A stretch of DNA of 47,952 bases from a virus (lineage: Duplodnaviria > Caudoviricetes): positions 1 to 47,952 of IMG/VR virus record IMGVR_UViG_3300037427_003832; one strand, written 5' to 3'. The translations under genes were made by a program, and so were the position numbers. The notes beneath the pieces were generated by a model. It worked only from the letters and a program-made list of their open reading frames with translations. It made no database searches and was not told the DNA's origin. Shown one piece after another: positions 2,563 to 20,304 of this stretch; position 1 is the first letter of the stretch, and every line of letters begins with the position of its first letter.

Positions 2563-2706
2563 GCTAATACGCTATTACAGAAACATGGCAATATGTGCAG
2601 TTTTATTGACTATAATACAGTGCGTATGTGGCATGGGCTGATGAGGTGAGAGTGATGAAGGGTAAAGAGCTGCTATAATACGAGGTACACAAGATAAGGG
2701 TTGCAA

Positions 2707-2829
2707 ATGACAGAAGAGTACAATAGAATAATTAAATACAAGTGCGACAAATGCAAACTGCATGTCGAAGCGATAGACACAGCTACCGTATGGTGCCCGA
2801 AGGGACACTTGATGGAAGCTCAAGACTAG
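2707..2829 (+). CDS. Small zinc-ribbon-like protein (40 aa)
   Basis: Manual: MTEEYNRIIKYKCDKCKLHVEAIDTATVWCPKGHLMEAQD (CxxC...CxxGH). Confidence 0.55.
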   Translation: MTEEYNRIIKYKCDKCKLHVEAIDTATVWCPKGHLMEAQD

Positions 2830-2839
2830 GAGACACTAA

Positions 2840-3133
2840 GTGTTAGACAACAGAGAGATGCTACACAAAGAGCTAAGCAGCATGGGCGAGAACGAAGTAC
2901 TGTTCATGGACGGTGACGGATTCGACGAGGCTATCATCGGCATAGGCAGTCAGTACGGATCAGAGCTATCGGTAGTATACGACGAAGCTAAGCTAGTCGA
3001 AGCACTCATGGAGCAAGGCATGGACTCAGACGATGCATGGGAGTACTACTACATCAACATCAAGCACAGCTACGTAGGGAGACACACTCCCATCATACTA
3101 GAGACAGTCAACTCAATAAGAGAAAGGTTCTAA
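2840..3133 (+). CDS. Hypothetical phage protein (DGFDEAIIG family)
   Basis: AGGAG RBS before the GTG; DGFDEAIIG...VVYD...A.EY..YN....YVG..TP motif. Confidence 0.8.
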   Translation: MLDNREMLHKELSSMGENEVLFMDGDGFDEAIIGIGSQYGSELSVVYDEAKLVEALMEQGMDSDDAWEYYYINIKHSYVGRHTPIILETVNSIRERF

Positions 3134-3137
3134 GACA

Positions 3138-3278
3138 ATGGCAAGGAAAGCACCTGCATTCATTGAACGATCAAGTCGAACGAATAGGAAACGCAAAGGA
3201 GTACACGCTAAGAAGGGTAGCTCTAGTCTGAAGCAATCAAAGCTGTACAAGAAGAAGTACAACAGACAAGGAAGGTAA
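3138..3278 (+). CDS. Small highly basic protein (46 aa)
   Basis: Manual: MARKAPAFIERSSRTNRKRKGVHAKKGSSSLKQSKLYKKKYNRQGR; the YKKKYxxQGR ending resembles small basic peptides of aquatic phages. Confidence 0.65.
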   Translation: MARKAPAFIERSSRTNRKRKGVHAKKGSSSLKQSKLYKKKYNRQGR

Positions 3279-3283
3279 CACAA

Positions 3284-3352
3284 GTGGGTATCTGGATACT
3301 GCTAGGCATAGGGGTACTACTCTGGTGCATAGTTGCTGGATCAATGCTATAG
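3284..3352 (+). CDS. Possible single-TM micropeptide (22 aa)
   Basis: Manual: MGIWILLGIGVLLWCIVAGSML; GGAAGG upstream. Confidence 0.35.
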   Translation: MGIWILLGIGVLLWCIVAGSML

Positions 3353-3399
3353 AACGCTCGCCATAGTGCTCGCCATGAGCGGCGGCAAAGGACACAACA

Positions 3400-3651
3400 A
3401 TGAATCAATACTACGACACAACACACTACTACACAACAACACACAGCGACATATGGCTATGCGACGACCTAGGCGAACTGCGACGAATGGCCGAACACCA
3501 AACTGCCGACATAACCCGACTACACAGAGACAACACACAACTCAAACAACAAGTAGCTCATCTCACAGAACAAAACAACCGCAGCATCACCCAACAAATA
3601 AGAGCTCGTTTTAGCGCTCGTTTTAGCGCTCGTTCTACAGACAGTCGCTAA
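3400..3651 (+). CDS. Hypothetical coiled-coil protein
   Basis: AAGGA RBS; heptad-like segment LHRDNTQLKQQVAHLTEQN. Confidence 0.5.
   Translation: MNQYYDTTHYYTTTHSDIWLCDDLGELRRMAEHQTADITRLHRDNTQLKQQVAHLTEQNNRSITQQIRARFSARFSARSTDSR
3603..3633 (+). repeat. Tandem 12-bp repeat GCTCGTTTTAGC (~2.5 copies)
   Basis: agctcgttttagcgctcgttttagcgctcgtt seen directly. Confidence 0.8.
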
Positions 3652-3731
3652 CAACACTACCACGACAAACACAACACAAACATACAGAAAGTAACAGACA
3701 ACACACACAGTTAGTACTGTAGACTATACGC

Positions 3732-3824
3732 ATGAGAGAACACACCGACAACGAACAATGCGAATGCGAACCAACTCACGAATGCACAGCTGACAACAAC
3801 TGCGGCTGTACCTGCTGGCAGTAG
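3732..3824 (+). CDS. Cys-rich micro-protein (30 aa), metallothionein-like
   Basis: Manual: MREHTDNEQCECEPTHECTADNNCGCTCWQ; a TAGACT -10 box ends 6 nt before the ATG. Confidence 0.45.
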   Translation: MREHTDNEQCECEPTHECTADNNCGCTCWQ

Positions 3825-3914
3825 CACGCAGCAAACGCAAACGTATATAGTTCAAACTTTTTGGAGCGACCTATACCGGCTGGCTGGCTTTGTGTGGTTG
3901 CTTTGGTGGTTGGT

Positions 3915-5816
3915 TCAGTTTGTGTTTTCTGGTGGTTGTAGGAGTTGGTGTAGGTTTGGTGGTGTGTGGCTGATTGCTGGGTCTGTGTTTTCTGCTTTTT
4001 TGGTGATTGTGTTGTAGATGTGTTGGTCTATGGTGTTGGGGATTAGCATGTTGTGGATGGTTACGGGTTGGGTTTGTCCTATTCGGTGGATTCGGGCTGT
4101 TGTTTGTCGGTATTGGGCTGGTGTCCAAGGTGGTTCGATTATTAGCATGTTTGTGGCTGCTGTTAGTGTGTGTCCGTGGCTGGCGGCTGTTATGCTTATG
4201 GTGATGTTTGTTGGGTTTGTGCTTTCTTGGAATTTGGTTTTTGCGGTTTCGGTTTTTTGGGGGGTTTGTCCTCCGATTATCATGAGTCCGCTGGTTTCGT
4301 TGGCTATGGTTTGTACTATGTGGCGGTGGTGGGCGGCTATGACGATTTTGTGTCCTTGTTCGTTTGCGTTTTGTATCCATTCTAGGGCGGTTTTGATTTT
4401 GGCTTGTGCGACTATTTTTCGGAGTTCTGTGAGTTGGATTAGGGTTTCGTGGTTTTGGGTTGCGAAGTGTGCTCGGATTCGGGCGGCTGTTGGGTTTTTG
4501 CCTTCTTGTAGGGCTAGTTTTTCTTTTTCTTCTTCGTAGTAGCTTTGTAGGTCGTTGAGGGCGTGGTTGTATTCTTTTTTGTGTTTGGGGTTCATTTCTA
4601 CGGTTATTGTGTTGTATGTCATGGGTGGTAGGTCTGGGAGGACGTCTTGTTTTTCTCTGCGGATGTAGCAGTGGGTTTTGAGGTTGTTGTGGAGTTCTTT
4701 TAGGTTTGAGGCTCCGTGTGTTTGCCAGTGGCCCCAGTTGTCTTTGTAGGCGTTGCAGTAGCGTTTGTAGAAGTTCCATATTCCGCCGAATTGGTCGATT
4801 TTGTTTAGGATTTCGAGTTGGGGTGCGTATTCTGCTGGTCGGTTGGTGATTGGGGTTCCTGTGAGGAGTAGTATGTTGCCTTCTGGTGGTATGGTTTTGG
4901 CTAGGTATTTTGCGGCTTTGGTTCGTTGTGCTGTTCTGTTTTTGCAGTAGTGTGATTCGTCTAGGATTAGTGTGTTGTAGTTTTGTTCTTTGAGTGTTGT
5001 TTTGTGGTGGTGTATGTTGGGGTAGCCGATTATGGTGTAGTCGGTGTTGGTCATTTGGAGGGTTTTGCGTCCGGCGATTTGTTGGATTGTTCTTTCTGGT
5101 AGTGCTTCGTTGATTTTGTTTGCCCAGTCTTGTACGAGGCTTGAGGGGCATACGATTAGGGCTGGGTATTGGTTTGTGTATTCTGTGGTTGCTAGGGCTT
5201 GTAGGCTTTTTCCTAGTCCCATTTCGTCTGCTATGAAGCATTTGTGTTTTTCGGAGGCGTATGCTACGCCTGCTCGTTGGTATGGGTAGAGTTCTAGTTG
5301 TATGTTTGGGACTGTTATGTTTGCGTCTGTGGCTTGGGATAGTTTTGTGGCGTGTTGTGCTTGTTTTGTTTCTATTTCGACTTGTTCTCGCATGTGGTCG
5401 GGTATGGGTATGTTGTAGGTGTCTGCCCATTTGATTACGTCGTTTATGACGGAGTATGGTGCTTCCCATTTGTTTGTGAGCGCATTCCATTTGATTCCGG
5501 TGATTGTTTTGAGGCTTTTTACGGTTAGTGTGTCGTATGGGAGGGTAATTATGAGTTTGCCGTTTTTAAGTCTTATGGAGGTATCTCCGATTGGGTGGTC
5601 TGGTAGTTGTAGCCGTATGAGTTCTTGGCTGATTTCTATGTTCCACGATTTTGCGAAGTCGAGGGCTGTTTTGAGGTGGGGTAGTGGTATTCGCCATACT
5701 TTGTTTAGTTTGTCCCAACGTGCTTGTGGTATTCCGTTTTTGAGTGCTCTGACTTCGTCTGGGTTGTATGGTGTGTCTAGGACTACGTGTGTTCCGTCTA
5801 GTTTCAGTATTTTCAT
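3915..5816 (-). CDS. SNF2-family helicase with two N-terminal HARP-like domains (SMARCAL1-like)
   Basis: DEMGLGKS (motif I), DESH (II), LLLTGTPITNRP (III), RIHRIGQ (VI); duplicated PY..W....K.W..P segments at the N-terminus. Confidence 0.9.
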   Translation of the reverse strand: MKILKLDGTHVVLDTPYNPDEVRALKNGIPQARWDKLNKVWRIPLPHLKTALDFAKSWNIEISQELIRLQLPDHPIGDTSIRLKNGKLIITLPYDTLTVKSLKTITGIKWNALTNKWEAPYSVINDVIKWADTYNIPIPDHMREQVEIETKQAQHATKLSQATDANITVPNIQLELYPYQRAGVAYASEKHKCFIADEMGLGKSLQALATTEYTNQYPALIVCPSSLVQDWANKINEALPERTIQQIAGRKTLQMTNTDYTIIGYPNIHHHKTTLKEQNYNTLILDESHYCKNRTAQRTKAAKYLAKTIPPEGNILLLTGTPITNRPAEYAPQLEILNKIDQFGGIWNFYKRYCNAYKDNWGHWQTHGASNLKELHNNLKTHCYIRREKQDVLPDLPPMTYNTITVEMNPKHKKEYNHALNDLQSYYEEEKEKLALQEGKNPTAARIRAHFATQNHETLIQLTELRKIVAQAKIKTALEWIQNANEQGHKIVIAAHHRHIVQTIANETSGLMIIGGQTPQKTETAKTKFQESTNPTNITISITAASHGHTLTAATNMLIIEPPWTPAQYRQTTARIHRIGQTQPVTIHNMLIPNTIDQHIYNTITKKAENTDPAISHTPPNLHQLLQPPENTN

Positions 5817-5822
5817 TGCATT

Positions 5823-6518
5823 TTATGGTGCTTTTCTATCGTTTATTAGGAATGAGTTGTATGTTACGGGCATGTGGTCCCATAGGAAGCATTCCATTGC
5901 TGATGAGTAGTCTTGTATTTCTTTTTGGGCTGTTTTGTGTCCTCGTAGTTCTGCGAAGTGCATGAGTGCTCTTGCGTTTGTTGTTGCGTAGAATTCTGTG
6001 TATGTTCCTACTGGGATTACAAGTCTTGCGATTTCTTTAGCTACGTTTTTTGATAGGAGTAGGTCGTATTGGTCGAATGCGTTGTAGTATGCTCGTTTTA
6101 TTACGGCTTTTGCTATTCCGGTGTCCCATTCTTCCATTTGTTCAAATGTGTAGTTTCCGGGTTTGCCTACTTGTGTTCGCATATTTTCGTCAGATGGTGT
6201 GTAGTATTCGTTGTTGATTACTGAGTATCTGCCGGAGTATTCGTTGTATGACCATCCTATTCTGTGTCTGAACCATTCTCTGGCTACAAATATGGGGGCT
6301 TTTACGTGGAATCGAAAGAAGTTGTGTTCGAATGGTGTTCCGTGTTGTTCTCGCATTAGAAAGTTTATGAGCTGTGTGTCTTCTTTTTCTAATTCTTTTT
6401 TGTGTTTGCCGAAGCTTACTCGTGCAGAGTTTACTACGCTAAGGTCATCTGCGTATACTCCGTCTAGCCTTACGAATCCGTTGTCTAGTACTTTGATTTC
6501 TGTTCTGTCTTGTTCCAT
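5823..6518 (-). CDS. thyX: Flavin-dependent thymidylate synthase
   Basis: ARVSF, HGTPFEH and APIFVAREWFRHR...SYNEYSGRY ThyX motifs. Confidence 0.96.
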   Translation of the reverse strand: MEQDRTEIKVLDNGFVRLDGVYADDLSVVNSARVSFGKHKKELEKEDTQLINFLMREQHGTPFEHNFFRFHVKAPIFVAREWFRHRIGWSYNEYSGRYSVINNEYYTPSDENMRTQVGKPGNYTFEQMEEWDTGIAKAVIKRAYYNAFDQYDLLLSKNVAKEIARLVIPVGTYTEFYATTNARALMHFAELRGHKTAQKEIQDYSSAMECFLWDHMPVTYNSFLINDRKAP

Positions 6519-7567
6519 TATTCAACTAGCCATTCTGGTCGGTTCATTGTCCATTTTACTGTTCTTTCGAATGACTCGTGTACTGGTATTGGTGCATTCC
6601 AACCGTATTCTTTTAGTTTTGTGCCGTCTAGTGAATATCGCAAGTCATGACCGGGTCTACTTGAGTGGAAGTCTACTAGTTTGTAGTTGGGTTCTTTTCC
6701 AATTATTTTAGAAATTATTTTTACGATTTCTAGGTTGTCAATTTCTTTTTCTCCCGCAATGTTGAATCGTTGAATGTCTGGAGTTTCATTGGTATCCACA
6801 TAGTCGTGTGCATCTACGTTTTCTAATATAAACTGAATAGCATCTGCGTGGTTTCTGGCGTGTAGCCAAACCCTTGACCCAATTGTCCACGCATTTTCTT
6901 CAGTTTCAGCAAAGCTGTTGTCAGGGTGTGGTTTGCCGTGTATTTCTATGAGGTCCCCTGATAATGTTTTTTTAATAACCATTGGAATATACTTCTCTGG
7001 GTGTTGGCGTTCTCCAAAGTTATTCATTGTGTTTGTTATCATGACAGGAACGTTGTATGTTCGCCAATAGGCGTATGCAATTGATTCCTGTGCTGATTTA
7101 GAAGCGGAGTATGGGTTTGAAGGACGGTGTGGTTCTCCTTCAGAGTGATCGTGCCCTAATGGGGCGGGACCATATACTTCGTCTGTTGAAATTTGAATAA
7201 ACTTTTCGGGTTTAACTTCTCGAGCATATTCCAGCATGTTTAAGACGAGACTGACATTGTTTTGTATAAAGTCAACTGGGTGGGTTATTGATCTGTCAAC
7301 GTGTGAGTCAGATGCCATGTTTACAATGTAGTCAACTTGCCCAATTTTGGATTTAATTTGTGAGTGCAGTGGGGCTCTCATGTCGTGCCAAACAACTGAT
7401 ACACGGTTAGGGTCATACCCTTCTATGTCTGTGAGCCGTTCAATTCGTCCAGAGAAGCGTAGTGCGTCTACAACTATAATGTCCCAATCAGTGTTTTTAA
7501 GCCAATGTTCTACTGTGTGACATCCTATGAATCCTAGCCCACCTGTTAGTAATACTCTTTTGCTCAT
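6518..7567 (-). CDS. rfbB: dTDP-glucose 4,6-dehydratase-like NAD-dependent epimerase/dehydratase
   Basis: TGGLGFIG, SHVDRSI, STDEVYG, PYSASK, RPGHDLRY; start trimmed to MSKRVLL with AAGGA RBS. Confidence 0.88.
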   Translation of the reverse strand: MSKRVLLTGGLGFIGCHTVEHWLKNTDWDIIVVDALRFSGRIERLTDIEGYDPNRVSVVWHDMRAPLHSQIKSKIGQVDYIVNMASDSHVDRSITHPVDFIQNNVSLVLNMLEYAREVKPEKFIQISTDEVYGPAPLGHDHSEGEPHRPSNPYSASKSAQESIAYAYWRTYNVPVMITNTMNNFGERQHPEKYIPMVIKKTLSGDLIEIHGKPHPDNSFAETEENAWTIGSRVWLHARNHADAIQFILENVDAHDYVDTNETPDIQRFNIAGEKEIDNLEIVKIISKIIGKEPNYKLVDFHSSRPGHDLRYSLDGTKLKEYGWNAPIPVHESFERTVKWTMNRPEWLVE

Positions 7568-7585
7568 TTGATTTCCTTGTTTTGT

Positions 7586-7629
7586 AAAAGTTAACCTCGG
7601 CACATATGGGGAGCTGCACCGAGGTTAAC
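7586..7629 (-). terminator. Rho-independent terminator-like hairpin
   Basis: 11-bp inverted repeat GTTAACCTCGG (7590-7600) / CCGAGGTTAAC (7619-7629), followed by TTTT on the minus strand. Confidence 0.65.
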
Positions 7630-7677
7630 GATCATTACCTGCATACATTATGCTATTTATTGTATTTAGGGTGATTA
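7586..7677 (-). ncRNA. Candidate ~90-nt antisense sRNA
   Basis: Lies between a TTGACA-N17-TAGAGT promoter and a terminator; no ORF; 20-nt perfect complement of 12569-12588. Confidence 0.55.
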
Positions 7678-7682
7678 CTTAT

Positions 7683-7711
7683 ACTCTATTAATGTTTGCT
7701 TTTTGTGTCAA
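7683..7711 (-). promoter_or_regulatory. sigma70/SigA-type promoter
   Basis: TTGACA-N17-TAGAGT on the minus strand. Confidence 0.7.
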
Positions 7712-7714
7712 GTC

Positions 7715-9499
7715 CTACCATTCCTTTGAGTCACCATCAAATTCTTCGTTTTCATCTACTTTGTTGCTTGTGCCATCTGCTGAGTAGTCGGCAAACTCAA
7801 TTACTTCGAAGGGCCATGTGTCTCCTCGTTTGCAAAGCTCTGGCCATTCTCTAGCTTCTCTCTGCCCACGGTAGTGTCTGAACTCAATAAGTTGGGGATC
7901 AGTTGGATCAGGGGCTAGGGCAATACCAAACTCTGACCATCTTGACCATACGGCTGAACCGAATGGTCTTAGATCTCTTTGGCCACCTGATCCTAGCGGG
8001 GCATGGTGTTCTATCCATAGTGCGCAGTTATATGTGTGTCTAATGTAGTCTAAGAATCTAGCTACTTCAATTGATACTGATTCTGCTGTTCGTCCGCCCG
8101 GATCTAGGAAAGATTTGTATAGTGGACCAAAGAACAGTATGTCTGGCTCAACAGATGCAACATATTCTTCAACCATTGCCCTGTCCTCAGCTTTTAGTAG
8201 GTTAACGCCGTCTGGCTTCATTAGAAGGTGGGCGTCCATATCTTTGTGTTGGTCAAACCATTTGATTTTGTCATAGATTCGTTTTGATGTTCTTCTAATT
8301 ATTCTTTCAGGGTTTTCTAGATCAATCATGAGTGTCCTGACGGGCTTCATGGGTGAGCGTAAGAAGGGGTGTATTCCTGCAGAGGCCATCAACGCTACCT
8401 GTCTGGCTAATGTTGTTTTTCCTGCGCCTTCTGCGGCAACTACGACAACACGCTCTTGTCTTTCTAAAACGTTTGGAATAACCCAGTCATACGATAGGTC
8501 TACGTCCATTTCTAAGAACGGGCTCCATTCTACAAGGTTGCCTGTCTCTCTATGTTGCAGGGATGCGTCAGATAAAAATTTGTCAAATGAAGCCGATGCT
8601 TTACCTAGTATTACCCCTTGAGAGGCATCAGCAACTTTTAGTTGTTCTAAGGATGTTATTAGATCATCGATAGCCCCAACGTTTAGAAGGTCGTCACTAG
8701 TATTGGTTTCCTCGACAGATTCTTCAAATGGGATCAGTGCCTCTGCCAACTCTTCGCCTGCTTCAATCAAATCACTTACGTCTTTGTGTTTTCCGGGTTT
8801 GAATACTTTTACGTTGCTTCCTGCGTCCGTTAGCATTTTATGGACTGATCGTGCATGTAGATAGCCTGCTTCATCATTATCGCATATTATTATTACTTTT
8901 GCCCCCGCAAGAGAAGCTGTATGTTTTTCGGTCCATTTGTTTTGTCCCTCTGCGCCAGCCCCTCCGGGATTTGTGGTAGCTACTTTACCCAAGCTCTCTA
9001 GACTATGTACGTCTTTTTCGCCTTCAACTACATAAATTGGCACGCCTTGTTCTTTAGCAGACATAACTTGTGGTAGCCGATATAGTGGTTTTTCTAAACC
9101 TGATGTGCTCCAGTTCCACCCGCCGTTATTATCAGGCTGGCGTTGTCTGAATGTTTTCTTTCCGTCAGAGTCACGGTAGCGCAATACTTCCATAACAAGC
9201 TCTCCGGATTCACTGAAGTATTTGTAGGTGTCTTCTACCGTAAGTTTTTTCTTTTTAGGCTTGGCTGTATCTTTAGGAAATAGATCCTTAAGATCAAGGT
9301 CGATGCTTTTACATATCTCACTTATGTCACATCCTCCACCTCGCATGCACTTCATTAAAACTTGATTTTGATTGCCTACTGATATTCTTAAAGATGGATT
9401 CTCGTCATCATTTCTGCATGGACAGGAGGCATCCCATTGGTTTTCTCCTGCTTTTGTGTGGTTTACTCTTGCTAAAACATCTTCGATTGGATTACTCAC
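7715..9499 (-). CDS. DNA primase-helicase (Zn-binding + TOPRIM + AAA_25/RepA-like helicase)
   Basis: CPC..DD.NPSL, VVEGEKD, ICDNDEAG (TOPRIM); AEGAGKT Walker A, IDLENP, IEHH. Confidence 0.9.
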   Translation of the reverse strand: MSNPIEDVLARVNHTKAGENQWDASCPCRNDDENPSLRISVGNQNQVLMKCMRGGGCDISEICKSIDLDLKDLFPKDTAKPKKKKLTVEDTYKYFSESGELVMEVLRYRDSDGKKTFRQRQPDNNGGWNWSTSGLEKPLYRLPQVMSAKEQGVPIYVVEGEKDVHSLESLGKVATTNPGGAGAEGQNKWTEKHTASLAGAKVIIICDNDEAGYLHARSVHKMLTDAGSNVKVFKPGKHKDVSDLIEAGEELAEALIPFEESVEETNTSDDLLNVGAIDDLITSLEQLKVADASQGVILGKASASFDKFLSDASLQHRETGNLVEWSPFLEMDVDLSYDWVIPNVLERQERVVVVAAEGAGKTTLARQVALMASAGIHPFLRSPMKPVRTLMIDLENPERIIRRTSKRIYDKIKWFDQHKDMDAHLLMKPDGVNLLKAEDRAMVEEYVASVEPDILFFGPLYKSFLDPGGRTAESVSIEVARFLDYIRHTYNCALWIEHHAPLGSGGQRDLRPFGSAVWSRWSEFGIALAPDPTDPQLIEFRHYRGQREAREWPELCKRGDTWPFEVIEFADYSADGTSNKVDENEEFDGDSKEW

Positions 9500-9956
9500 T
9501 GTTGCTGTACCTTTCTAAAATATAAGATTCTCTAACTTTCTCATACAAAGAAGTAAACATAGCACGGTCAGAGTTTGTTGTTAGAGCTGTGGCGTTTGCA
9601 CCAAGTCTTTTGATTGTTGTGGTTAGGACAGGATGTGGCTTTTCATAATCATAAGTACCACTATATATCTTTTGCCCTATCGATTGGAGTAGGGTCCATG
9701 CTTCTTCTGGCTCAGGTGGAAGGCTTTCCCCACTGATTCTTGCCATTGTCGCAATTCTAACTTCTCCCGGCCTTGGAATCCACCTTCTGCCAGACAATCC
9801 CATTTCTTTGACTGTCTGTTTAACGTCGTCGTAGGGTAAATCCCCAATATATTCCCAGTAGCCTTTGGCTCTAACTGTTAGTGATGATTGGTCAATGGGT
9901 TTGTCCCATGTGACACTTAGCAGTTCTGTAACATGTAAGCACTCTTGTTTATCCAT
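9492..9956 (-). CDS. Possible replicative helicase loader/inhibitor-like protein
   Basis: W...L.DLPY....P.PGEVR...PEEAW pattern; directly upstream of the primase-helicase; AAAGGAG RBS. Confidence 0.55.
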   Translation of the reverse strand: MDKQECLHVTELLSVTWDKPIDQSSLTVRAKGYWEYIGDLPYDDVKQTVKEMGLSGRRWIPRPGEVRIATMARISGESLPPEPEEAWTLLQSIGQKIYSGTYDYEKPHPVLTTTIKRLGANATALTTNSDRAMFTSLYEKVRESYILERYSNSE

Positions 9957-9982
9957 ATTGCTCCTTTATAGCATAAAAGTAT

Positions 9983-10090
9983 AGCGAGTTGTCGGCGGAG
10001 TCCATCATTCCAGACCATCTCTCTTACCGTTGGCTTAGCTCATATTCCTTGAAGGACCAGAGCCAGTCCCACTGACCGATAACTACACTA
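9983..10090 (-). ncRNA. Candidate structured RNA downstream of ssb
   Basis: GC-richer intergenic segment closed by an AGUUAUCGG/CCGACAACU stem with two internal hairpins. Confidence 0.4.
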
Positions 10091-10100
10091 GTTATGTTGT

Positions 10101-10535
10101 TTAGAAGTCTTCAAACGGATCTGAAGATGGAACTGTTGCTTTTCCACTAGCAGTAGTGCTTGCGCCTGCTGGTGCAGCTTTTCGTGGCTTTCTAGTTACG
10201 TTTTCAATTCCATAAACGTTTACGCCAACAGTGTCAGCCACCAATTCTACCGTAGAACGGTTTGCTCCAGATTCTTTATCTTGCCAAGTACGTTGTTCAA
10301 GACGTCCTTTGACTAGAACTGGTAAACCTTTTTCTAGAACGTTTGCAGCATCTTCAGCGACTTTGCGCCATGCTACAACATTAAAGAATGATGTTTCTCC
10401 TGTCCATTCACCATTGACCTGATATCGTCTTTCAGACGCAACTGAAAAAGAAACTCTAGCGCTTCCATTCGAAGCATACTTAAGTTCAGGGTCAGCGGTG
10501 ATATTACCTGTTACTACAACATCTGCGTTACTCAT
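10101..10535 (-). CDS. ssb: Single-stranded DNA-binding protein
   Basis: GNITADPELKY...FFNVVAWR...GRLEQRTW; acidic tail DPFEDF. Confidence 0.95.
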   Translation of the reverse strand: MSNADVVVTGNITADPELKYASNGSARVSFSVASERRYQVNGEWTGETSFFNVVAWRKVAEDAANVLEKGLPVLVKGRLEQRTWQDKESGANRSTVELVADTVGVNVYGIENVTRKPRKAAPAGASTTASGKATVPSSDPFEDF

Positions 10536-10574
10536 ATTGATCTCCTTAAGATTTAACTATTTACAGATATAAGT

Positions 10575-10638
10575 ATCTTATGTAATATTTTGAGTCGTGT
10601 CAAGACTGCTTGCAAAAAAAATTTATTTTTATTAAGAT
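10575..10638. promoter_or_regulatory. Divergent promoter pair
   Basis: Minus: TTGACA(10603-10598)-N17-TAAGAT. Plus: TTGCAA(10610-10615)-N17-TAAGAT(10633-10638), 7 nt before ATG 10646. Confidence 0.65.
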
Positions 10639-10645
10639 AATCCAT

Positions 10646-10852
10646 ATGGACGAAAACGAAATAAAGCAAGCGAAGGTAAAACTTCTTCAGCACTTTGTCA
10701 CGGTTATGGTTGAATTAGCCGAACCTGAAGATGATGAGTTTGATGAGATTACTGATGACTTTATAAATGTGGTTGATTTGATTTTTGAAGCAACAGGTCT
10801 TACTATTGAATCTGTAGATGAGTCTAAGGTTACCGCATCATTCATGATTTGA
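10646..10852 (+). CDS. Small acidic hypothetical protein
   Basis: MDENEIKQ...; leaderless promoter geometry. Confidence 0.65.
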   Translation: MDENEIKQAKVKLLQHFVTVMVELAEPEDDEFDEITDDFINVVDLIFEATGLTIESVDESKVTASFMI

Positions 10853-11443
10853 TTGATAATCAACATGATCTAAAAAGTGCTTACGGCACATAACCTTATA
10901 AGCTACTACAGTGGTGTTGTCAACTATTTCGTCAGCACCATCAAATATGCGTTTGCCGTTTGTGTAAAGAGCGTTGTGTGTTGCAGGTTTTCCACACCAG
11001 CATCGCATGTTGTTGTTTAGTTGGTTGAAGCAATCTGCCAATTCTAACAATCTTTTAGAAGCAGGAAACATGGAGCCTTTGTATGTGGTTAACAGGCCGT
11101 AAGCATGTACTTCCACGCCCCGTACATCTGCAACATACGCTAATTCGTCAATTTGTGGTGTGCTTAAAAATTGCACTTCATCTAAAAATAAATACCTAAT
11201 GTGGTGCCGTCGCTCGTTTTCTTCTTTTTCAAGTATGTCCATTATGCTTGAGTCATCATCAACATTTACGGCAATAGTGGCATTTCCAGACCTGTTACTA
11301 CAAACGCACTTTCCTGATCTGTCATTTTTTGTAATAAGCAAAACTTCACCCGGAAATGCAGCATCAATGTTAAAATGGGTTTGCAGCAAATGCGTTGTTT
11401 TGCCAGAAGACATCGTTCCTACGTTAAAAACTATTTTACCCAT
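10838..11443 (-). CDS. tdk: Thymidine kinase
   Basis: GTMSSGKT, DEVQF, YGL...G..F..S..L..LAD, C-terminal CWCG...CRKH Zn site. Confidence 0.93.
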   Translation of the reverse strand: MGKIVFNVGTMSSGKTTHLLQTHFNIDAAFPGEVLLITKNDRSGKCVCSNRSGNATIAVNVDDDSSIMDILEKEENERRHHIRYLFLDEVQFLSTPQIDELAYVADVRGVEVHAYGLLTTYKGSMFPASKRLLELADCFNQLNNNMRCWCGKPATHNALYTNGKRIFDGADEIVDNTTVVAYKVMCRKHFLDHVDYQSNHE

Positions 11444-11460
11444 ATGTATTTATTATAAGA

Positions 11461-11694
11461 TTATGATTGCTGTGCAGAGTTCCACAAACTAGACCTAGTG
11501 GGATTATTTACATGGCTCTCTGTAGCAGGGACATTGGCTTTGCCTTTTATGGTTGGTGCAGAAAATATTTTTTTAACATCCATTATTTTACCGCTTTTTG
11601 GATGGGCCATTTCTGTTAGTGCGTCATCAGACATGGGCTGATAAACAGTTACCGTTTCGTCTGTATCAATAAACTTATAGGTGTAATGGGGCAT
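11461..11694 (-). CDS. FmdB-like small regulatory protein lacking the Cys ligands
   Basis: MPHYTYK...VYQPMSDDALT...KKIFSAP pattern of the FmdB family. Confidence 0.6.
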   Translation of the reverse strand: MPHYTYKFIDTDETVTVYQPMSDDALTEMAHPKSGKIMDVKKIFSAPTIKGKANVPATESHVNNPTRSSLWNSAQQS

Positions 11695-11696
11695 TG

Positions 11697-12503
11697 CTAA
11701 ACCTCTGCGGTTAGAGCATTCCAAGTGTCTTTGTCAATCACGCCTGTTTCTGGCAAGCCATATGAAAATTGCAGTAGCTTAATACTGTTTTCCATTTCTT
11801 TATCAAAGTCACTTCCACTAAGTTTTAAAAACTCTTTTATTTCTGGAATTTTCTTTGATTTAGATCCTATTCTAAGTGGTCTGCCCGGATATTTACCAAG
11901 TACGGTTTCTTCCTCTACTTGATTTTCCTCTGGAGCAAACGCTTCATTCCATATTTCTGCCATGTCGTCAGGAAGTATTGAATAGTGGAACCAAGTTTCA
12001 CACGAAGTTGTTGGCAATACACCCGTGGCTGGTTGCCACTCACCCCTGTTTAGACGAGCAATGTCTAAAGATCTTCCTTGTGTAGGGAAGTACCCTAGTT
12101 TTTGATCAACATTTAAATGAGGCAAATTCAAGAATAAAAAGTTTTCTAATATCGATTTAGCGTGTTTGTCTAGTTCTGCATGGTTATGACCAACAACATT
12201 TATCCAGTAACTTGTTGTATCTCGATTAGGGAGGTAAAGTGCATGCTCAGGATAGGCGCAAGCAGCTTTAGTTAAATCTGTATGATTGTACAAAACTTTA
12301 TTTTCGGTGTCTAAGGTTGCATGAGGAGCGGCTTTGTTATTTTCATAAATTCTAAAAGCTTCTTCCGCAGTCGCACAACCTGTTAGGCCTATAATTAATT
12401 TATTATTTCCTTCGGACACCCGATCATAAACGTTTCCATTAGCTATAAACTTTAATGACTTATCAACTTGCTTTACGCCTGAAAATTGTAAAAACTTATT
12501 CAT
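11697..12503 (-). CDS. Protein with C-terminal peptidoglycan-binding domain (endolysin/amidase-like)
   Basis: YPGRPLRIGS...Q..YGL..TG.ID..TW.AL (PG_binding_1 pattern); N-terminal part looks like a degenerate amidase. Confidence 0.6.
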   Translation of the reverse strand: MNKFLQFSGVKQVDKSLKFIANGNVYDRVSEGNNKLIIGLTGCATAEEAFRIYENNKAAPHATLDTENKVLYNHTDLTKAACAYPEHALYLPNRDTTSYWINVVGHNHAELDKHAKSILENFLFLNLPHLNVDQKLGYFPTQGRSLDIARLNRGEWQPATGVLPTTSCETWFHYSILPDDMAEIWNEAFAPEENQVEEETVLGKYPGRPLRIGSKSKKIPEIKEFLKLSGSDFDKEMENSIKLLQFSYGLPETGVIDKDTWNALTAEV

Positions 12504-12596
12504 ACTTGTTATTATACTGATATTCTCACCTTCCGCAAGTGTTGTCTTCAGTACAATATTTATGATCGTGCTATTTATTGTATTTAGGAGTATTCT

Positions 12597-15500
12597 TTGC
12601 GTATCAAAGGGGGTTTTTTTCGCAAGCTGTCCAAGGCATGTCTGGTTTGGTTCTTCATTGTGGCATTTGTCGCAGTTACCCCTGCTCATGCCACGAATCA
12701 TCAAGTTACTGGATTATCAGATTGGTACTTTTATTTAGACCAAGAAACTGAAATAACTCTGTATGGAAACTCAGATGAGGCTTGTAGCGAAATTAACTGG
12801 GAGACAACAGGCACTGATCCGTACCTTTTTTTGTACGACTACGATGATAACGATACCTATTTGACTGAAGACGATGATGCAGGACACATTGAAAACAGTC
12901 AGTGTGTTAGTGCTAAAATTACTGGAACATATCCGGCGGGTATCTATAGAATAAGGGCTGGTTACTGGGACGAGGACTCTGGGTCTACGGTAAACGGAGG
13001 CACAGGCAACCCAGACTATGTTCAGGATTGGGGAGACTTAACATATACTCTTGCTAGCAATAATATACCGCTGTATGATGTTGCTCCATCAGTTGGGCCA
13101 CCCATGAATTTAACTGTAACTGATAATGGCGACTCAATAACTCTAGACTGGGATGCACCTAACACGGGATACATTCCTGTTGAACGTTACGCAATATCTT
13201 GGAACATTCCGCCTAATGCTGGTTGGTCAATATCAACTGGAAACGTTGGAGATGCAGACGCTCTTAACACAGAAATAACTATTGCTTATTCAATATTTGC
13301 ACAACATGGGGGGTTAGGGCAAACATTCCGATTTGACATTAGATCGGACAATGATACCTATGGATATTACTCAGGTTGGTCTAATGAAGTAACAATTCTC
13401 ATTGGGGAGCCTGACACTGATGGTGATGGTGTCGTAGATAGTGCTGAAACTGAAGGCTGTGTTGACGATGTTGATTGTGACGATGACGGAACAGGTGACG
13501 CTACTGACCCAGATGACACTGACCCAGATGTTCCTGTTTTGACTGTAGACACAGATGGCGACGGTGTATTTGATGCAGAAGAAGACACTGGGTGTCAGAA
13601 CAGTACAGACTGTGATAGCGACGGTACAGATGATGCTCAAGATCCTGACGATCTTGACCCAGACGTTCCTACATTAACTGTCGATACGGATGGCGATGGG
13701 GTTTTTGATGCGGAAGAAACTGAAGGTTGCGAGGACGACGAGGACTGTGATAATGATGGCACAAATGACGCAGAAGATCCAGACGACACAGACCCTGACG
13801 TACCAACACTAACAGTTGATACAGATGGAGACGGTGTTTTCGATGCAGAAGAAACCGAAGGTTGTGCTGATGATACTGACTGTGATGACGACGGAACAGA
13901 TGACTTCCACGATGTAGACGATACAGATCCAGACATACCAACCCTTACCGTGGACACAGACGGAGATGGCGTGTTTGACGCTGAGGAAACTGAAGGCTGT
14001 GTAAATGATGAAGACTGTGACGATGATGGCACGGGAGACTTTGCGGACTCTGACGACACCAACCCAGACATTCCGGTATTAACAGTTGACACCGATAGTG
14101 ATGGAGTGTTTGACGCTGAAGAGGAAGAAGGGTGTGAAGATAACTCTGATTGTGATGACGATGGTACAGGAGATGCGGAAGACCCTGACGACTTTGACCC
14201 AGATGTTCCGTTTTTAACAGTGGACACTGACGGTGATGGTGTTTTTGATCAAGAAGAAGAAAACGGAACAGACCTTTATACAGGAGAAGAAGTCCAATGT
14301 ATGTATTTCGAAGACTGTGATAATGACGGAACAATGGACTTTGATGATCCCGAAGATCATGATCCAGACATTCCTGTTTGGACTATAGACGACGATGGTG
14401 ACGGAGAGTTTAACCAAGGCGAAGAAGAAGGGTGTGAGTACACGGTTGACTGTGATAACGATGGAACAAACGACCTTGAAGACCCAGATGATTATGAACC
14501 CGATGTGCCCGTATGGACTATAGACAACGATGGTGATGGTGTTTTTGACAGGGGCGAAGAGGCAGGTTGCGTTTGGGATACGGACTGCGACGATGATGGG
14601 ACGGGTGACTTTAATGATCCTGATGATTATGAGCCGGATGTTCCTGTATGGACAATCGACTCAGACGGTGACTTTGTTTTTGACAGGGGAGAAGAATTTG
14701 GTTGTGAGGAACTGGTAGACTGTGACTTTGATGGAACTTGGGACTTTGAAGACCCTGACGACTTTGACCCAGACTTACCTTTCCTAACAGTTGACTCCGA
14801 TGGTGACCTTGTATTCGACCAAGAAGAGTTTGAACAATGTATTGAAAATCCTGACTGTGATTTTGATGGAATTGAAGACTTTGAAGATATTGACCCCCTT
14901 GATCCGGATGCGCCTTTCCTCACAGTTGACACTGATGGAGACGGAGTGTTTGATGCAGAAGAATGGTTCAACGACGAAGTGGACTGTTTGTGGGACCCAG
15001 ACTGTGATGGAGACGGCTTTACAGACGACATTGACCCAGACCCGTTAGACCCGAACGTGCCCGTTGAGATGGTCACGGTAAATGGGGAGGAAGTTGAATT
15101 TACGTTTGTTGATGAAGACACAGGAGAGGAACTGTCAGTGGTAGAATTCTTTGAAGAGTTTGAAGTTGACGAAGAAGACCAAGAACTTGCCCTAGAGTTC
15201 AATGAACTTGGTATTGACATTGAAGATGTAAACCTTTCTGAAGTTGACGTTGCTGAAGAAAAAGTTATTGAAGATTTAGATGCAATCGACGAAGAGTTCG
15301 CTGAGGACTTTCTTGATATTGTAGACGGTGAGGTAACCGTAGAAGAAATTGAAAACGTATTGGAAAATGAAGAAGTGTTTGATCAAATAGTTGATGAAGG
15401 CGGAGCCGCCGTTCAAATATTAGTTCAAGCGGTTAACGAAGCAGACGATGATGTCAAAGCTCAATTTGAAGAAGAAGTAGATATTTTTGAAGACGAAGCT

Positions 15501-15734
15501 TTTAATGACTATGTTGCTGAAGGATCTGCCGTCGATACCGAGACTCGAAGGACGGTTGTGGCTGTTACGGCGGCTACGACTGCAGTGGCGGCAGCTTCAG
15601 CCGCAAGGCCTTCAGCATCTAGCACAGCCGGACCTTCCCCATCTGCCACTGGTGGTGGCGGAGGTTCCGCTGGTGCCACTTCAGGTAGCTCTGGTGGCGG
15701 TAGAGGATCGTCAAGAAACATTAGAAGAAGGTAG
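12597..15734 (+). CDS. Large secreted/membrane-anchored acidic protein with FN3 domain and 12 Ca-binding thrombospondin type-3-like repeats
   Basis: AGGAG RBS + TTG start; signal peptide ending PAHA; FN3 (GPPMNLTV...LDWDAP...RSDND...YSGWSNEV); DxDGDG repeats; hydrophobic Ala/Val stretch then a Gly/Ser/Arg tail. Confidence 0.8.
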   Translation: MRIKGGFFRKLSKACLVWFFIVAFVAVTPAHATNHQVTGLSDWYFYLDQETEITLYGNSDEACSEINWETTGTDPYLFLYDYDDNDTYLTEDDDAGHIENSQCVSAKITGTYPAGIYRIRAGYWDEDSGSTVNGGTGNPDYVQDWGDLTYTLASNNIPLYDVAPSVGPPMNLTVTDNGDSITLDWDAPNTGYIPVERYAISWNIPPNAGWSISTGNVGDADALNTEITIAYSIFAQHGGLGQTFRFDIRSDNDTYGYYSGWSNEVTILIGEPDTDGDGVVDSAETEGCVDDVDCDDDGTGDATDPDDTDPDVPVLTVDTDGDGVFDAEEDTGCQNSTDCDSDGTDDAQDPDDLDPDVPTLTVDTDGDGVFDAEETEGCEDDEDCDNDGTNDAEDPDDTDPDVPTLTVDTDGDGVFDAEETEGCADDTDCDDDGTDDFHDVDDTDPDIPTLTVDTDGDGVFDAEETEGCVNDEDCDDDGTGDFADSDDTNPDIPVLTVDTDSDGVFDAEEEEGCEDNSDCDDDGTGDAEDPDDFDPDVPFLTVDTDGDGVFDQEEENGTDLYTGEEVQCMYFEDCDNDGTMDFDDPEDHDPDIPVWTIDDDGDGEFNQGEEEGCEYTVDCDNDGTNDLEDPDDYEPDVPVWTIDNDGDGVFDRGEEAGCVWDTDCDDDGTGDFNDPDDYEPDVPVWTIDSDGDFVFDRGEEFGCEELVDCDFDGTWDFEDPDDFDPDLPFLTVDSDGDLVFDQEEFEQCIENPDCDFDGIEDFEDIDPLDPDAPFLTVDTDGDGVFDAEEWFNDEVDCLWDPDCDGDGFTDDIDPDPLDPNVPVEMVTVNGEEVEFTFVDEDTGEELSVVEFFEEFEVDEEDQELALEFNELGIDIEDVNLSEVDVAEEKVIEDLDAIDEEFAEDFLDIVDGEVTVEEIENVLENEEVFDQIVDEGGAAVQILVQAVNEADDDVKAQFEEEVDIFEDEAFNDYVAEGSAVDTETRRTVVAVTAATTAVAAASAARPSASSTAGPSPSATGGGGGSAGATSGSSGGGRGSSRNIRRR
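13413..15063 (+). repeat. 12 degenerate tandem ~135-bp (45-aa) coding repeats
   Basis: Unit DTDGDGVFDAEETEGCxDDxDCDDDGTxDxxDPDDxDPDVPxLTV counted 12 times in the translation. Confidence 0.92.
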
Positions 15735-15754: not shown

Positions 15755-15946
15755 ATGATTAAAAGATTAATAAGAGAAATGTATTACACATCTTGGACCC
15801 TAGGTGGCACTGCGTTGGTTCTCATCACTTTGTCGTCTGCGACCCTGACACAAGGAATATATATATCTGTGGCTGCTTTTGTATTTCATATGCTTGGAGT
15901 TGCTATAGACTATAGATATGACAAACGGAATCAAAACAATGACTGA
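15755..15946 (+). CDS. Small membrane protein (2 TM)
   Basis: AGGAGG RBS; two hydrophobic segments. Confidence 0.75.
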   Translation: MIKRLIREMYYTSWTLGGTALVLITLSSATLTQGIYISVAAFVFHMLGVAIDYRYDKRNQNND

Positions 15947-16202
15947 ACAATCAGTTCATTTAGCTATCAATACCTTGGGAAGAATTTTTGCTGTTTTTGC
16001 GATGAACTCAATGGCAATTATTGGAGGGTCCAGTCTTATAGGTGGAATCGATCCGTGGAAAGCTGCATTTTTGGCAGGTGTGACTGCAACAGCTACAGTT
16101 GTTCAGAAACTTGCTGCAGCTTATGCTGACGATGGCAAAATTACTGCTGACGAAATCGATGCTGCTTTTAGACTTTCACAAGCAAAATCTTCTGAAAGTT
16201 AA
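15939..16202 (+). CDS. Holin-like membrane protein
   Basis: Two TM segments, then DDGKITADEIDAAF. Confidence 0.65.
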   Translation: MTEQSVHLAINTLGRIFAVFAMNSMAIIGGSSLIGGIDPWKAAFLAGVTATATVVQKLAAAYADDGKITADEIDAAFRLSQAKSSES

Positions 16203-16521: not shown

Positions 16522-16529
16522 ATCATCGC

Positions 16530-16558
16530 TTGATCGTAGAATAGTAGATCAGTATAAT
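16530..16558 (+). promoter_or_regulatory. Promoter for an ORF-less transcript
   Basis: TTGATC-N17-TATAAT. Confidence 0.6.
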
Positions 16559-16564
16559 AAATAA

Positions 16565-16657
16565 AAAGTTAGGGGAATTGGATTTTTCGCTCCTTTGTTG
16601 TATCCCTTACCGCTAACTAGAATGGTCCCCAGCCTTAATCGGCTGGGGATTTTTCTT
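16565..16657 (+). ncRNA. Candidate ~90-nt sRNA
   Basis: Has its own promoter and terminator; AGUUAG/CUAACU stem enclosing a CUCCUUU anti-SD; no ORF. Confidence 0.5.
16626..16657 (+). terminator. Rho-independent terminator
   Basis: TCCCCAGCC-ttaatc-GGCTGGGGA followed by TTTTTCTTT. Confidence 0.85.
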
Positions 16658-18107: not shown

Positions 18108-18458
18108 ATGGACAAAAAGGGACCAAGAAAAATTGTTACTGAAGCGGTGAAGATTGGGACCTACGGTAACACAAAATGGCATTTGCAATTAGAGTGTGGC
18201 CATTCTCTTGACACTCAACGCAAGCCTAAAATCAATGAAACAAGAATATCCTGCAAGGCTTGTCTAAACCCTGTTTCCAATGAAGTTGCTACAGTCCCAA
18301 TAGGCTTGGCTGATGAGGTTGATCCCTTATCAGAACTAAAAATACGAGCAGCAATTGCATCATACTTTAATGTGCAGATAGAGCAGGTGGATTTCGCATG
18401 GGGCACTGCGACTGTTTTTTTAGATGCTCAACAGGTTAAAAGAATATCTAGTCAGTAA
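18108..18458 (+). CDS. Hypothetical protein with Zn-finger-like motif
   Basis: LECGH...CKAC. Confidence 0.7.
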   Translation: MDKKGPRKIVTEAVKIGTYGNTKWHLQLECGHSLDTQRKPKINETRISCKACLNPVSNEVATVPIGLADEVDPLSELKIRAAIASYFNVQIEQVDFAWGTATVFLDAQQVKRISSQ

Positions 18459-19071
18459 CCTTACAGTCTATAAAGTTTTCCCTATGTCGCCGGTAGTAAA
18501 GCAACGGCTCTTCAACATGTGAGACTGTTGCACCTAGGTCTAACATTCTGTCCCATAGTGCCCAGTCCTCACAGGCAGCATTGCCTTCTGCGAAGTCCTT
18601 GTGACGTCTGTACCCCGCTTCTTGTCCAATAGAGGTTCTGTACATTATTGATCCATGGTGTCCATCCCATTGCCAGTAAATGTCTCCATCAAGGATGTTC
18701 TCCTCTTTTGCGTCTCTGTGTCCCATCTTGTGTTCCCCTGTCACCATCACATGGTAGGTAACAATATCAGTATCTTGTTTAAGTAGGGTTTCAACCGCAT
18801 CTGACCTTAGCCAGTTGTCTGCCCCAAGAAACATTGTGTACTCTGTTTCTACTTTCATAAGCATGTCTTGGAAGTTATCAACGGTACCTAAGTTTTCTTC
18901 CCTTAGGGTGTATTTAACTTCTGGGTAAACTTTTAGAAGGTGTGTGCAGTCGCCAACGCCATCGTCCACGAAGAGTATCTTTTCTGGTTGGACCGTTTGA
19001 GAAAGCAGGCTTTCAATGCAGTGTGCTGCTAGGTGCCCATAATGGTATGATGCAACTACGACTGTTAACAT
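18448..19071 (-). CDS. Glycosyltransferase family 2
   Basis: TVVVASY..G...CIES, FVDDG, FLGADN, CEDW, PLLYYRRH. Confidence 0.9.
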   Translation of the reverse strand: MLTVVVASYHYGHLAAHCIESLLSQTVQPEKILFVDDGVGDCTHLLKVYPEVKYTLREENLGTVDNFQDMLMKVETEYTMFLGADNWLRSDAVETLLKQDTDIVTYHVMVTGEHKMGHRDAKEENILDGDIYWQWDGHHGSIMYRTSIGQEAGYRRHKDFAEGNAACEDWALWDRMLDLGATVSHVEEPLLYYRRHRENFIDCKVTD

Positions 19072-19799
19072 GGTATTCTGCTTGCATCAATGTGTGGAAC
19101 GAGTCGCCCATCTACTAAATAGTCAGGGTACTCTAGCACACTATCTGATTTGCAAAACCCGTTCATATAAGTCATACGTGATTGATTAGAGGTGTTTGCT
19201 TCGCTTCCATGGACAATTGTAACTGACCAAAGCATAACGTCGCCCTTGTGTGCTATATATTTAGTTCCAGACAGTTCTTTGCGTTCAAACTTTCTAAGAT
19301 TTTCAGGAGTGTCAAAGTTTGCCCATTCATGTGACCCTTCAATAAATTCTACAGCTCCATTTTCTTCTGTAATGTCATCTATTGCTATAATTGTCTGCAG
19401 GTAGTCTGTTTCAACAGTGTCTTTAAATTGAGATCTTTCCCTGAAAATTGTGTCTCGATGCCAAGCAAATGTATCTATGTCTTCTGCTTCACGAAAGTAA
19501 ACTTGGTTGTTTATTTGTCGAACGTTTGGACCTAAAAATGTACTTACAATGTGTAGCATTCTGGGGTCCGTTCGAATAACGTTTAAATAGTCGTTTGCTA
19601 AAGCAGGAAAAAATATTAAAGATTTTTTATTGTAGGCTTTTTCGCTTGGAATATGGGGATATCCTGCACTAGTTATGTCTTCATCTGTGACTGAGTATGC
19701 TGCAGCTTTCATTAGATCGCACTCTTGTTCTGTAAAAACTGCAGGAATGACTGCTATTCCCTTTTTTAAGAATACTGCTTTGCTAGATGAAAGGGACAT
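19065..19799 (-). CDS. 2-oxoglutarate/Fe(II) dioxygenase, PhyH family
   Basis: WHRD (HxD), IAIDD..EENG....EGSH, GDV..W....VHGS..N.S..SR. Confidence 0.9.
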   Translation of the reverse strand: MSLSSSKAVFLKKGIAVIPAVFTEQECDLMKAAAYSVTDEDITSAGYPHIPSEKAYNKKSLIFFPALANDYLNVIRTDPRMLHIVSTFLGPNVRQINNQVYFREAEDIDTFAWHRDTIFRERSQFKDTVETDYLQTIIAIDDITEENGAVEFIEGSHEWANFDTPENLRKFERKELSGTKYIAHKGDVMLWSVTIVHGSEANTSNQSRMTYMNGFCKSDSVLEYPDYLVDGRLVPHIDASRIPC

Positions 19800-20304
19800 A
19801 GTCACTATATATTTTGTATCTAGCATCAGGAGCAAACTCATCTTGTTCTCCCTGAGTAACTGAGTATGCTTTTTCGTAGCCTGCTTCTTTTACTAAGCTT
19901 ATGACCCTGTCATCATATTCACCATATGGATATCTTAGGTACTTTGTGGGAAATGGTGCTGTTATTTCTTGGAGCACTTCTTTGTCGGAAAGCTCAGTCA
20001 AGTTCCTGTGCGACCAAGTGTGCCAGCCTATTTCAAAATTGTGTGTAAAGCACAACTGTTTGACTTGAAAAAGTGTGCAGAAAGTTTCTAATTTCGGGAC
20101 GTTGTCTAAATCAAACTCGTTGTCCTTACCCATGTAGCCACCCATTACAAACATGATTCCTGACTTGCCTTCTAGGACGTCTTGGTTTTTGTATACGTTC
20201 CAGTACACACCATCAAAACCAATTGGTTCATTGCAAGCAAGAATCTGCTCACGGGTGTGGTAGTTTGAATGATCTTCATCTCCTATGCTGTGTGCTAGTC
20301 TCAT
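19783..20304 (-). CDS. Polysaccharide deacetylase (NodB/CE4-like)
   Basis: GFDG, EIGWHTWSH.NL, RYPYG. Confidence 0.85.
   Translation of the reverse strand: MRLAHSIGDEDHSNYHTREQILACNEPIGFDGVYWNVYKNQDVLEGKSGIMFVMGGYMGKDNEFDLDNVPKLETFCTLFQVKQLCFTHNFEIGWHTWSHRNLTELSDKEVLQEITAPFPTKYLRYPYGEYDDRVISLVKEAGYEKAYSVTQGEQDEFAPDARYKIYSDYVPFI

Follow-up and report, generated by a model that had tools for sequence, protein, structure and literature searches.

We propose that a tailed phage encodes a small RNA of about 90 nucleotides (nt) that silences, by base pairing, the messenger of a secreted-type repeat protein encoded at a different locus. The element lies in a 47,952-nt stretch of viral DNA (IMG/VR record IMGVR_UViG_3300037427_003832), hereafter the window, in which one 20-mer occurs in two copies. 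The first is part of a minus-strand unit made of a promoter and two hairpins, directly after the primase gene, and the second lies in the plus-strand leader of a gene coding for an acidic repeat protein of 1045 amino acids (aa). From comparative sequence analysis, we put the probability that the RNA of this unit represses translation of the repeat protein by RNA pairing at roughly 0.8. The best reading is that of a single-target, trans-encoded antisense RNA that would work like RNA-OUT of IS10.

The exact match between positions 7651-7670 and 12569-12588 had been pointed out in the original prediction, and it goes beyond chance. The copies are 4918 nt apart, no further site on either strand of the window has fewer than six mismatches to the 20-mer, and this is the sole exact repeat of at least 20 nt in the window outside coding repeats. 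When the window was simulated 100 times with an order-3 Markov model, the longest exact direct repeat measured 14-19 nt and never reached 20. The second copy was said to belong to the 5' untranslated region of the 1045-aa gene, reaching its Shine-Dalgarno (SD) sequence. This was borne out, as it stands 12 nt past a GTACAAT box, includes the first three bases of the AGGAG motif and is followed by a TTG start codon at 12597.

Relatives were collected by searches with the primase, which yielded 143 loci. We kept the window and the 79 loci with at least 57% primase identity (80 rows, in which some contigs occur twice); the remaining loci, below 57%, do not have the same gene order and were dropped from the pair analysis. 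The unit directly follows the primase stop codon in 60 of the 80 rows, and a readable target leader is present in 59; both occur together in 44, which amount to 26 unique pairs. As for the 20 rows with no unit after the primase, ten stop short of the site, four have the unit elsewhere, and one (L011) ends ahead of that second, relocated site. In the other five (L018, L019, L024, L112 and L122), the unit was not found within the contig stretch examined.

The evidence that carries our proposal is the co-variation of guide and leader. A duplex of 22-32 base pairs (bp) is predicted for all 26 unique pairs, with a mean energy of -35.5 kcal/mol for cognate against -21.7 kcal/mol for non-cognate combinations, a difference equalled in 0 of 100000 permutations. 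A guide ranks the leader of the same genome first in 13 of the 26 pairs and second to fifth, behind near-identical sisters, in the other 13. With the leaders grouped into 12 clusters, cognate pairing is the best in 10 of 12 rows (0 of 200000 permutations). Among 12 sister pairs of the primase tree, cognate pairing outperforms swapped pairing in seven and is outperformed in none, with five ties (p 0.008); two of these seven informative pairs share a tree edge, which leaves 6 of 6 if only independent ones are counted. The window and L110 (93% primase identity), for instance, differ by matched changes on both sides, with a double difference in free energy (ddG) of -12.3. The co-variation check on relatives that had been suggested for this match was thus passed in all 26 pairs, 10 of the 12 clusters and all seven informative sister pairs, and the matching persists among relatives whose primases are only about 59% identical. 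Over the initial 32 nt of the guide, 11 close pairs show 82-100% identity, compared with 40-80% at the four-fold sites of the primase. As guide identity exceeds that of four-fold sites, the guide is under purifying selection, and there is no sign of diversifying selection.

The geometry of the duplex is also consistent with translational repression. In all 29 pairs considered, it begins at most six bases from the predicted 5' end of the leader, whose length ranges from 24 to 36 nt, and at least three of the four SD-core bases are paired in 25 of them.

Four loci (L002, L083, L013 and L094) provide a natural experiment, in that the unit is missing after the primase and the GU-rich leader has been kept. 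A covariance model of the unit, R1, in which only the pairs of the second hairpin are modelled, was trained with the window included and these four loci left out. With R1, all four turn out to have the unit past the dehydratase gene (E 1.5e-5 to 9e-5). In each, the unit has a TTGACA promoter to itself, a further promoter follows the second hairpin, and the guide ranks the leader of the same genome first or second of 31. For L018, L019 and L024, three of the loci in which the unit was not found, the best of 28 guides reaches only -14 to -19 with their leaders; these contigs are incomplete, and the unit may lie outside them. Because the RNA gene is 4-5 kb away from its target, the match must be kept by co-evolution. 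The co-variation of guide and leader, together with their matching after relocation, supports the initial idea of a phage small RNA that would silence translation of the 1045-aa gene.

The unit appears to be confined to this clade. R1 has no match in 54 more distant phage loci (L027-L080, with 42-55% primase identity), in L139, L140 and L143, in G006-G009, or in any of 121 genomes from the class to which G010 belongs, a scan made without a positive control. A lone weak match in L018 corresponds to another unit, located after the holin gene (see below), and not to the antisense unit. A 15-nt guide pattern retrieved 123 loci; among the 80 of them that were listed, two copies are present only in contigs of this clade, and R1 matches clade members only. 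The exact 20-mer had no match in the viral contigs searched. As R1 models the pairs of the second hairpin only, distant forms of the unit may be missed.

Within genomes, the cognate leader is the preferred site. In the window it is the best non-self site, at -29.9 kcal/mol, with the next at -22.5 kcal/mol. The corresponding values are -28.8 vs -25.4 in a contig of 105 kb, -27.6 vs -25.5 in one of 103 kb, -44.1 vs -38.2 in one of 69 kb and -37.9 vs -25.9 in one of 128 kb, the margin being small in two of the contigs. The left end of the window (1-6500) differs in composition and contains a strongly A/C-skewed SNF2 gene; this skew explains the GU-rich second-best duplex sites found on the antisense strand of that gene. 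Two late-gene ribosome-binding sites (RBSs) had been put forward as partial targets. They do contain TTTAGG (around 36607 and 38172), but they pair at only -6.2 and -9.9 kcal/mol, values that 42% and 9% of 9584 windows equal or surpass, and were rejected as background, as was the portal RBS, at -10.6 kcal/mol.

The RNA itself is predicted to be structured. The segment 7680-7580 folds at -30.8 kcal/mol (z -5.4), and none of 200 shuffled sequences does as well. A layout with a free guide followed by a hairpin had been envisaged, but this did not hold: the 20-mer is itself folded into a bulged hairpin that had been overlooked (stem-loop 1, SL1; 7676-7631), of which it makes up the 5' arm and loop. 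The SL1 fold has z < -1 in 28 of 29 unique domains (mean -2.8), and a consensus SL1 is absent from an alignment based on sequence only. Most of the SL1 loop bases pair with the 5' end of the leader in all 12 clusters. In the second hairpin (SL2), two-sided changes occur at 10 of the 12 consensus pairs (30 sequences), and SL2 is retained with the guide blocked in 28 of 29 cases; no riboswitch-like rearrangement of SL2 upon binding was seen. SL2 had initially been described as an 11-bp hairpin with a U-tract. The 11 perfect pairs are there, or 15 with G-U pairs, but the tract consists of four U only. A GC hairpin with at least five T in the following eight bases, the signature of an intrinsic terminator, was not found in the window, where there are four T, and a terminator scan was silent. 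Across relatives, these eight bases hold 1-6 T, with at most four in 15 of 29 unique units, so that SL2 is not a canonical terminator. No Rfam family matches the unit, the window or seven relatives.

Promoters and start sites were defined by motifs and are predictions throughout. The minus-strand TTGACA-N17-TAGAGT at 7711-7683, already noted in the original prediction, is present and scores 10/12. Taken singly this match is weak, since such promoter-like sites are no commoner than expected between 6000 and 14000 (16 found vs 18.6 expected). TTGAC-N17-TAnnnT is found at the equivalent position in 60 of the 80 loci. It would be a full sigma-70-type promoter, resembling those ahead of ssb and recA. 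At the target locus, a TACAAT/TAGAAT-type box occupies the same position in relatives, with no TTGAC -35 element, and the promoters ahead of the holin gene and of some baseplate-region genes likewise have none. This suggests that the target promoter belongs to a different timing class. A reading of TAAATA as a T4-type late promoter was rejected, with 43 scattered sites.

How might the RNA operate? Transcription from the TTGACA promoter would yield an RNA of about 90 nt whose 3' end would be set at SL2, by leaky termination or trimming. The SL1 loop would seed on the mRNA of the repeat protein at its free 5' end, and the 5' arm of SL1 would then unzip, the cost of opening being 4-11 kcal/mol, to be compared with duplex energies of -25 to -44 kcal/mol. 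The calculated net pairing energy is -16 to -39 kcal/mol, and the co-fold reaches -65.7 vs -43.6 for the two RNAs apart. Masking of the SD sequence would exclude the 30S subunit and perhaps lead to cleavage by RNase III. A mid-duplex mismatch recurs in several clades (L009, L017, L021 and L113) and is absent from the window pair; it is tempting to speculate that it limits such cleavage. The purpose of the circuit is its least certain part. It might set a threshold that holds the acidic secreted protein off until its mRNA outnumbers the RNA, and two small membrane genes downstream could be subject to the same threshold. Our guess is that the unit originated by duplication of the target leader.

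Several observations weigh against this proposal. In 13 of the 26 pairs, the leader of a sister pairs equally well or better than the own one. Only one of the four SD-core bases is paired in 4 of the 29 pairs (the L015 clade). When SL1 arms are swapped, the cognate one comes out ahead in no more than 4 of 12 rows, in a test biased by the choice of split points. In a neutral alignment of the two copies, differences of the G-U type outnumber those of the A-C type, at 34:17 by cells (p 0.024) and 27:11 by contexts (p 0.014), and in 22 of the 26 unique pairs the sense orientation gives stronger pairing than the reverse complement. The excess of the G-U type stems from differences between G and A (19:4), chiefly those within the G-rich SD, with T/C differences at 8:7 by context. 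Given this confounding, the bias is weak evidence for RNA pairing, and we rejected it as proof. The RNA contigs, from 8 of the 10 runs listed and at a depth of 2-12, include none that spans 7586-7676, which is uninformative in both directions. In the L014 clade, just one or two T follow SL2. Lastly, the window shows no separate promoter between SL2 and the dehydratase gene, so that the unit could also be the leader of that gene and termination at SL2 must be leaky.

This last point leads to the rival explanation that survives best, albeit an unlikely one: the unit would form the 5' leader of the operon behind it and would be bound by the mRNA of the repeat protein, which would switch termination or translation as with an attenuator or sponge, control then running in the opposite direction. 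The next gene indeed begins no more than about 20-30 nt past SL2 in the window and many of the relatives, no promoter is seen between the two, and the U-tract is weak. Nevertheless, SL2 is unchanged when the guide is blocked, as described above, the downstream gene varies among relatives (dehydratase, thyX and others), and six loci (L009, L015, L107, L002, L013 and L094) have another promoter past SL2.

Alternatively, the two copies might be DNA operators for one protein, placed just past two transcription starts. This possibility was raised together with the original prediction, and we consider it disfavoured and quite improbable. Each copy does lie a few bases beyond a -10 box, these phages encode potential regulators (WhiB, a helix-turn-helix protein and a sigma factor), and the confounded G-U bias does not speak for RNA. 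Yet the 12 clusters differ in sequence from one another and still match within each genome, with 18 gap cells between the copies, and the 20-mer has no apparent dyad symmetry. Moreover, one copy is in every case built into a conserved hairpin, as its arm and loop, and is always antisense to the mRNA, and in six loci the preceding promoter seems to serve the unit alone. What argues for RNA rather than DNA recognition is the combination of a conserved hairpin at one copy, units that stand alone, indels and a sequence that changes from clade to clade.

An equally improbable scenario is that the RNA guides a TldR-like DNA-binding protein to repress the target promoter. Phage-borne TldR repressors exist, and they require a nuclease-dead TnpB (bioRxiv 10.1101/2023.11.30.569447). 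The resemblance lies in a guide of about 20 nt or longer and a promoter-proximal site; here, 20-30 nt of guide match DNA at the predicted transcription start. In contrast, no TnpB-like protein was found among the open reading frames (ORFs) of the window, and PF07282, the TnpB/Cas12f zinc ribbon, is absent from all four contigs searched (up to 87% complete), with the control positive in 8 of 14. The 106 ORFs of the relative G001 include no Cas effector, TnpB, Argonaute or Hfq, but only a Cas4-like PD-(D/E)XK nuclease in a recombination block. Nor does the unit have a conserved scaffold sequence, with 4 invariant columns of 123, and bulges are common. As for a functionless local duplication or a chance repeat, its persistence in all 26 unique pairs, above the level of four-fold sites and after relocation, makes it most implausible.

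Among known systems, RNA-OUT of IS10 pairs through its hairpin loop with the 5' end of the mRNA, which is unstructured, and the duplex blocks the RBS (PMC4737173, PMC1994261). The same loop-to-5'-end pairing and duplex over the RBS are predicted here. RNA-OUT is cis-encoded, on the strand opposite its target, and a threshold response has been described for it (PMC1994261). In contrast, the phage unit is 4918 nt from the target copy, has a second hairpin and would control a surface-type protein rather than a transposase. C4 of phages P1 and P7 shares with the unit its phage origin and a guide that varies along with the target, as its loops occlude the RBS and vary between phages with their target (PMC5320573). 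Unlike the two hairpins of the unit, one of which carries a guide with a continuous match of 22-32 bp and which have no Rfam match, C4 comprises three stem-loops, with loops a' and b' both short. RNase P releases it from a precursor, and its role lies in the immunity of temperate phages (PMC5320573). We found no integrase or serine recombinase in five partial contigs of the present phages (44-87% complete), and a lytic lifestyle is thus likely. Repression of a phage mRNA by long base pairing is also known for sar of P22, OOP and aQ of lambda, STnc6030 of BTP1 and PAK_P4as15, which are treated as antisense RNAs at the target locus, and the trans-acting phage small RNAs described alongside (PreS, VpdS, DicF and 24B_1) depend on Hfq (PMC12197685). 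In the literature covered, no description of the present RNA was found. Its fold may be among the 8495 unnamed IMG/VR candidates of PMC10690425; six of our contig identifiers have no match in three of the six supplements of that report.

The unit has two features of a trans-encoded antisense RNA, namely a locus of its own with a predicted promoter and a 3' hairpin (60 of 80 loci, plus the four relocated units) and a complementarity to the RBS that co-varies with the target. Dedicated antisense RNAs with long matches are normally cis-encoded, and the match then comes for free. Here, the antisense gene is apart from its target and has been relocated, and it is still matched through changes of the whole sequence. 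This pattern points to strong selection to restrain one secreted repeat protein, which makes that protein worth studying. The 26 natural guide/leader pairs form a test set for the co-evolution of trans-acting antisense RNAs and could supply partly orthogonal repressors of translation for use in Actinobacteria.

The target protein contains 31% Asp and Glu, 23 DxDxDG motifs and an N-terminal hydrophobic stretch, and is predicted to be secreted or surface-bound. An fn3 match is below threshold (E 7e-4), an atlas search gave FN3/PPC as a lead (0.88), and homologues carry PA14/fn3 domains. The protein has no PDB, PHROG or NCBIfam match, and an atlas search with its C-terminal part returned nothing usable. 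The two small hydrophobic genes that follow are likely in one operon with it, and a putative holin gene comes next. The window belongs to a tailed phage, with genes for terminase, portal, prohead protease, RecA, ThyX, SSB, thymidine kinase and primase-helicase, and the 105-kb relative encodes a tail sheath, baseplate J, DNA polymerase A and its own sigma-70. These phages are uncultured and aquatic. A WhiB gene is present in the window (21293-21553) and in 5 of 5 relatives searched, and among 14 controls only in Corynebacterium; their host is thus likely an actinobacterium. One might go further and picture a protein-independent circuit of two RNAs around the envelope/lysis block of lytic actinophages. 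In it, the unit would be a movable, leader-derived cassette, existing in about a dozen clade-specific guide/leader pairs, that silences the same or a close but not a distant phage in co-infection, and a second RNA, with an anti-SD loop and encoded after the holin gene, would act on other phage or host messages. We regard this combined picture as doubtful.

Positions of the unit, its predicted target and neighbouring genes in the window
Feature	Position	Strand	Basis or remark
-35 hexamer (TTGACA), predicted promoter of the unit	7706..7711	-	4 nt past the primase stop
-10 hexamer TAGAGT	7683..7688	-	predicted +1 near 7676, from spacing
Predicted antisense RNA of about 90 nt (SL1 + SL2 + U4)	7586..7676	-	fold z -5.4; R1 match 7581-7675
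SL1, bulged hairpin with the guide in its 5' arm and loop	7631..7676	-	fold
Guide core, exact complement of the target leader	7651..7670	-	duplex -29.9 kcal/mol
SL2, 15-bp hairpin, terminator-like or 3' stabiliser	7590..7629	-	two-sided changes
U4 tail	7586..7589	-	sequence
-10-like box GTACAAT of the target promoter, without TTGAC -35	12551..12557	+	motif
Predicted 5' leader of about 33 nt, repeat-protein mRNA	12564..12596	+	inferred from the -10 box
Target site, into SD AGGAG (12586-12590)	12569..12588	+	20-mer identity, duplex
Target gene, 1045-aa acidic repeat protein	12597..15734	+	ORF, N-terminal hydrophobic stretch
Two small hydrophobic genes (63 and 94 aa)	15755..16202	+	directly downstream of the target; same order in relatives
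Primase-helicase gene (Toprim + AAA_25), upstream neighbour of the unit	7715..9499	-	domains
dTDP-glucose 4,6-dehydratase-like gene	6518..7567	-	starts 18 nt past the U4 tail

Other features of these genomes deserve mention. Ahead of the target locus, a divergent minus-strand promoter (12501-12538; TTGCGG ... TATAAT) lies 7 nt ahead of an ATG at 12503. The divergent mRNA is likely leaderless, and the start of its gene is probably not at 12704, where a TTG is annotated. The back-to-back arrangement of the two promoters is retained in relatives. In L018, L019 and L020, in which the antisense unit was not found, a different gene stands in place of the repeat-protein gene and its two small neighbours.

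A second conserved non-coding unit follows the holin gene on the plus strand (16530-16657). It comprises a promoter-like site, TTGATC-N17-TATAAT, then a hairpin and a strong terminator, and is represented by 30 unique sequences from 49 loci. The pyrimidine loop of its hairpin contains CTCCT, an anti-SD-like motif kept in 23 of the 30. It has no Rfam match at the gathering score, and no clear long target of the loop emerged from a search in which the unit was misplaced in G133. At the place that corresponds to 16525-16551 of the window, its -35 region is part of an inverted repeat in most relatives, possibly an operator or the terminator of the holin gene.

In L019 (8010-10805), L020 and L125, the primase gene is split by about 1.0-1.7 kb, possibly by an intron or a homing endonuclease. 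Genes of the sugar and oxygenase types (GT2, PhyH, polysaccharide deacetylase) form blocks at 18448-20795 and 24888-27335 in the window and at 1-11300 in G001, which encodes many 2OG-Fe(II) oxygenases. Two adjacent paralogues of 165 and 147 aa (23935-24886) have exact repeats of 18-20 nt in common. Finally, consecutive genes for ParB-N, PAPS-reductase-like and ParB-N proteins (28218-30707) might constitute a DNA modification cluster.

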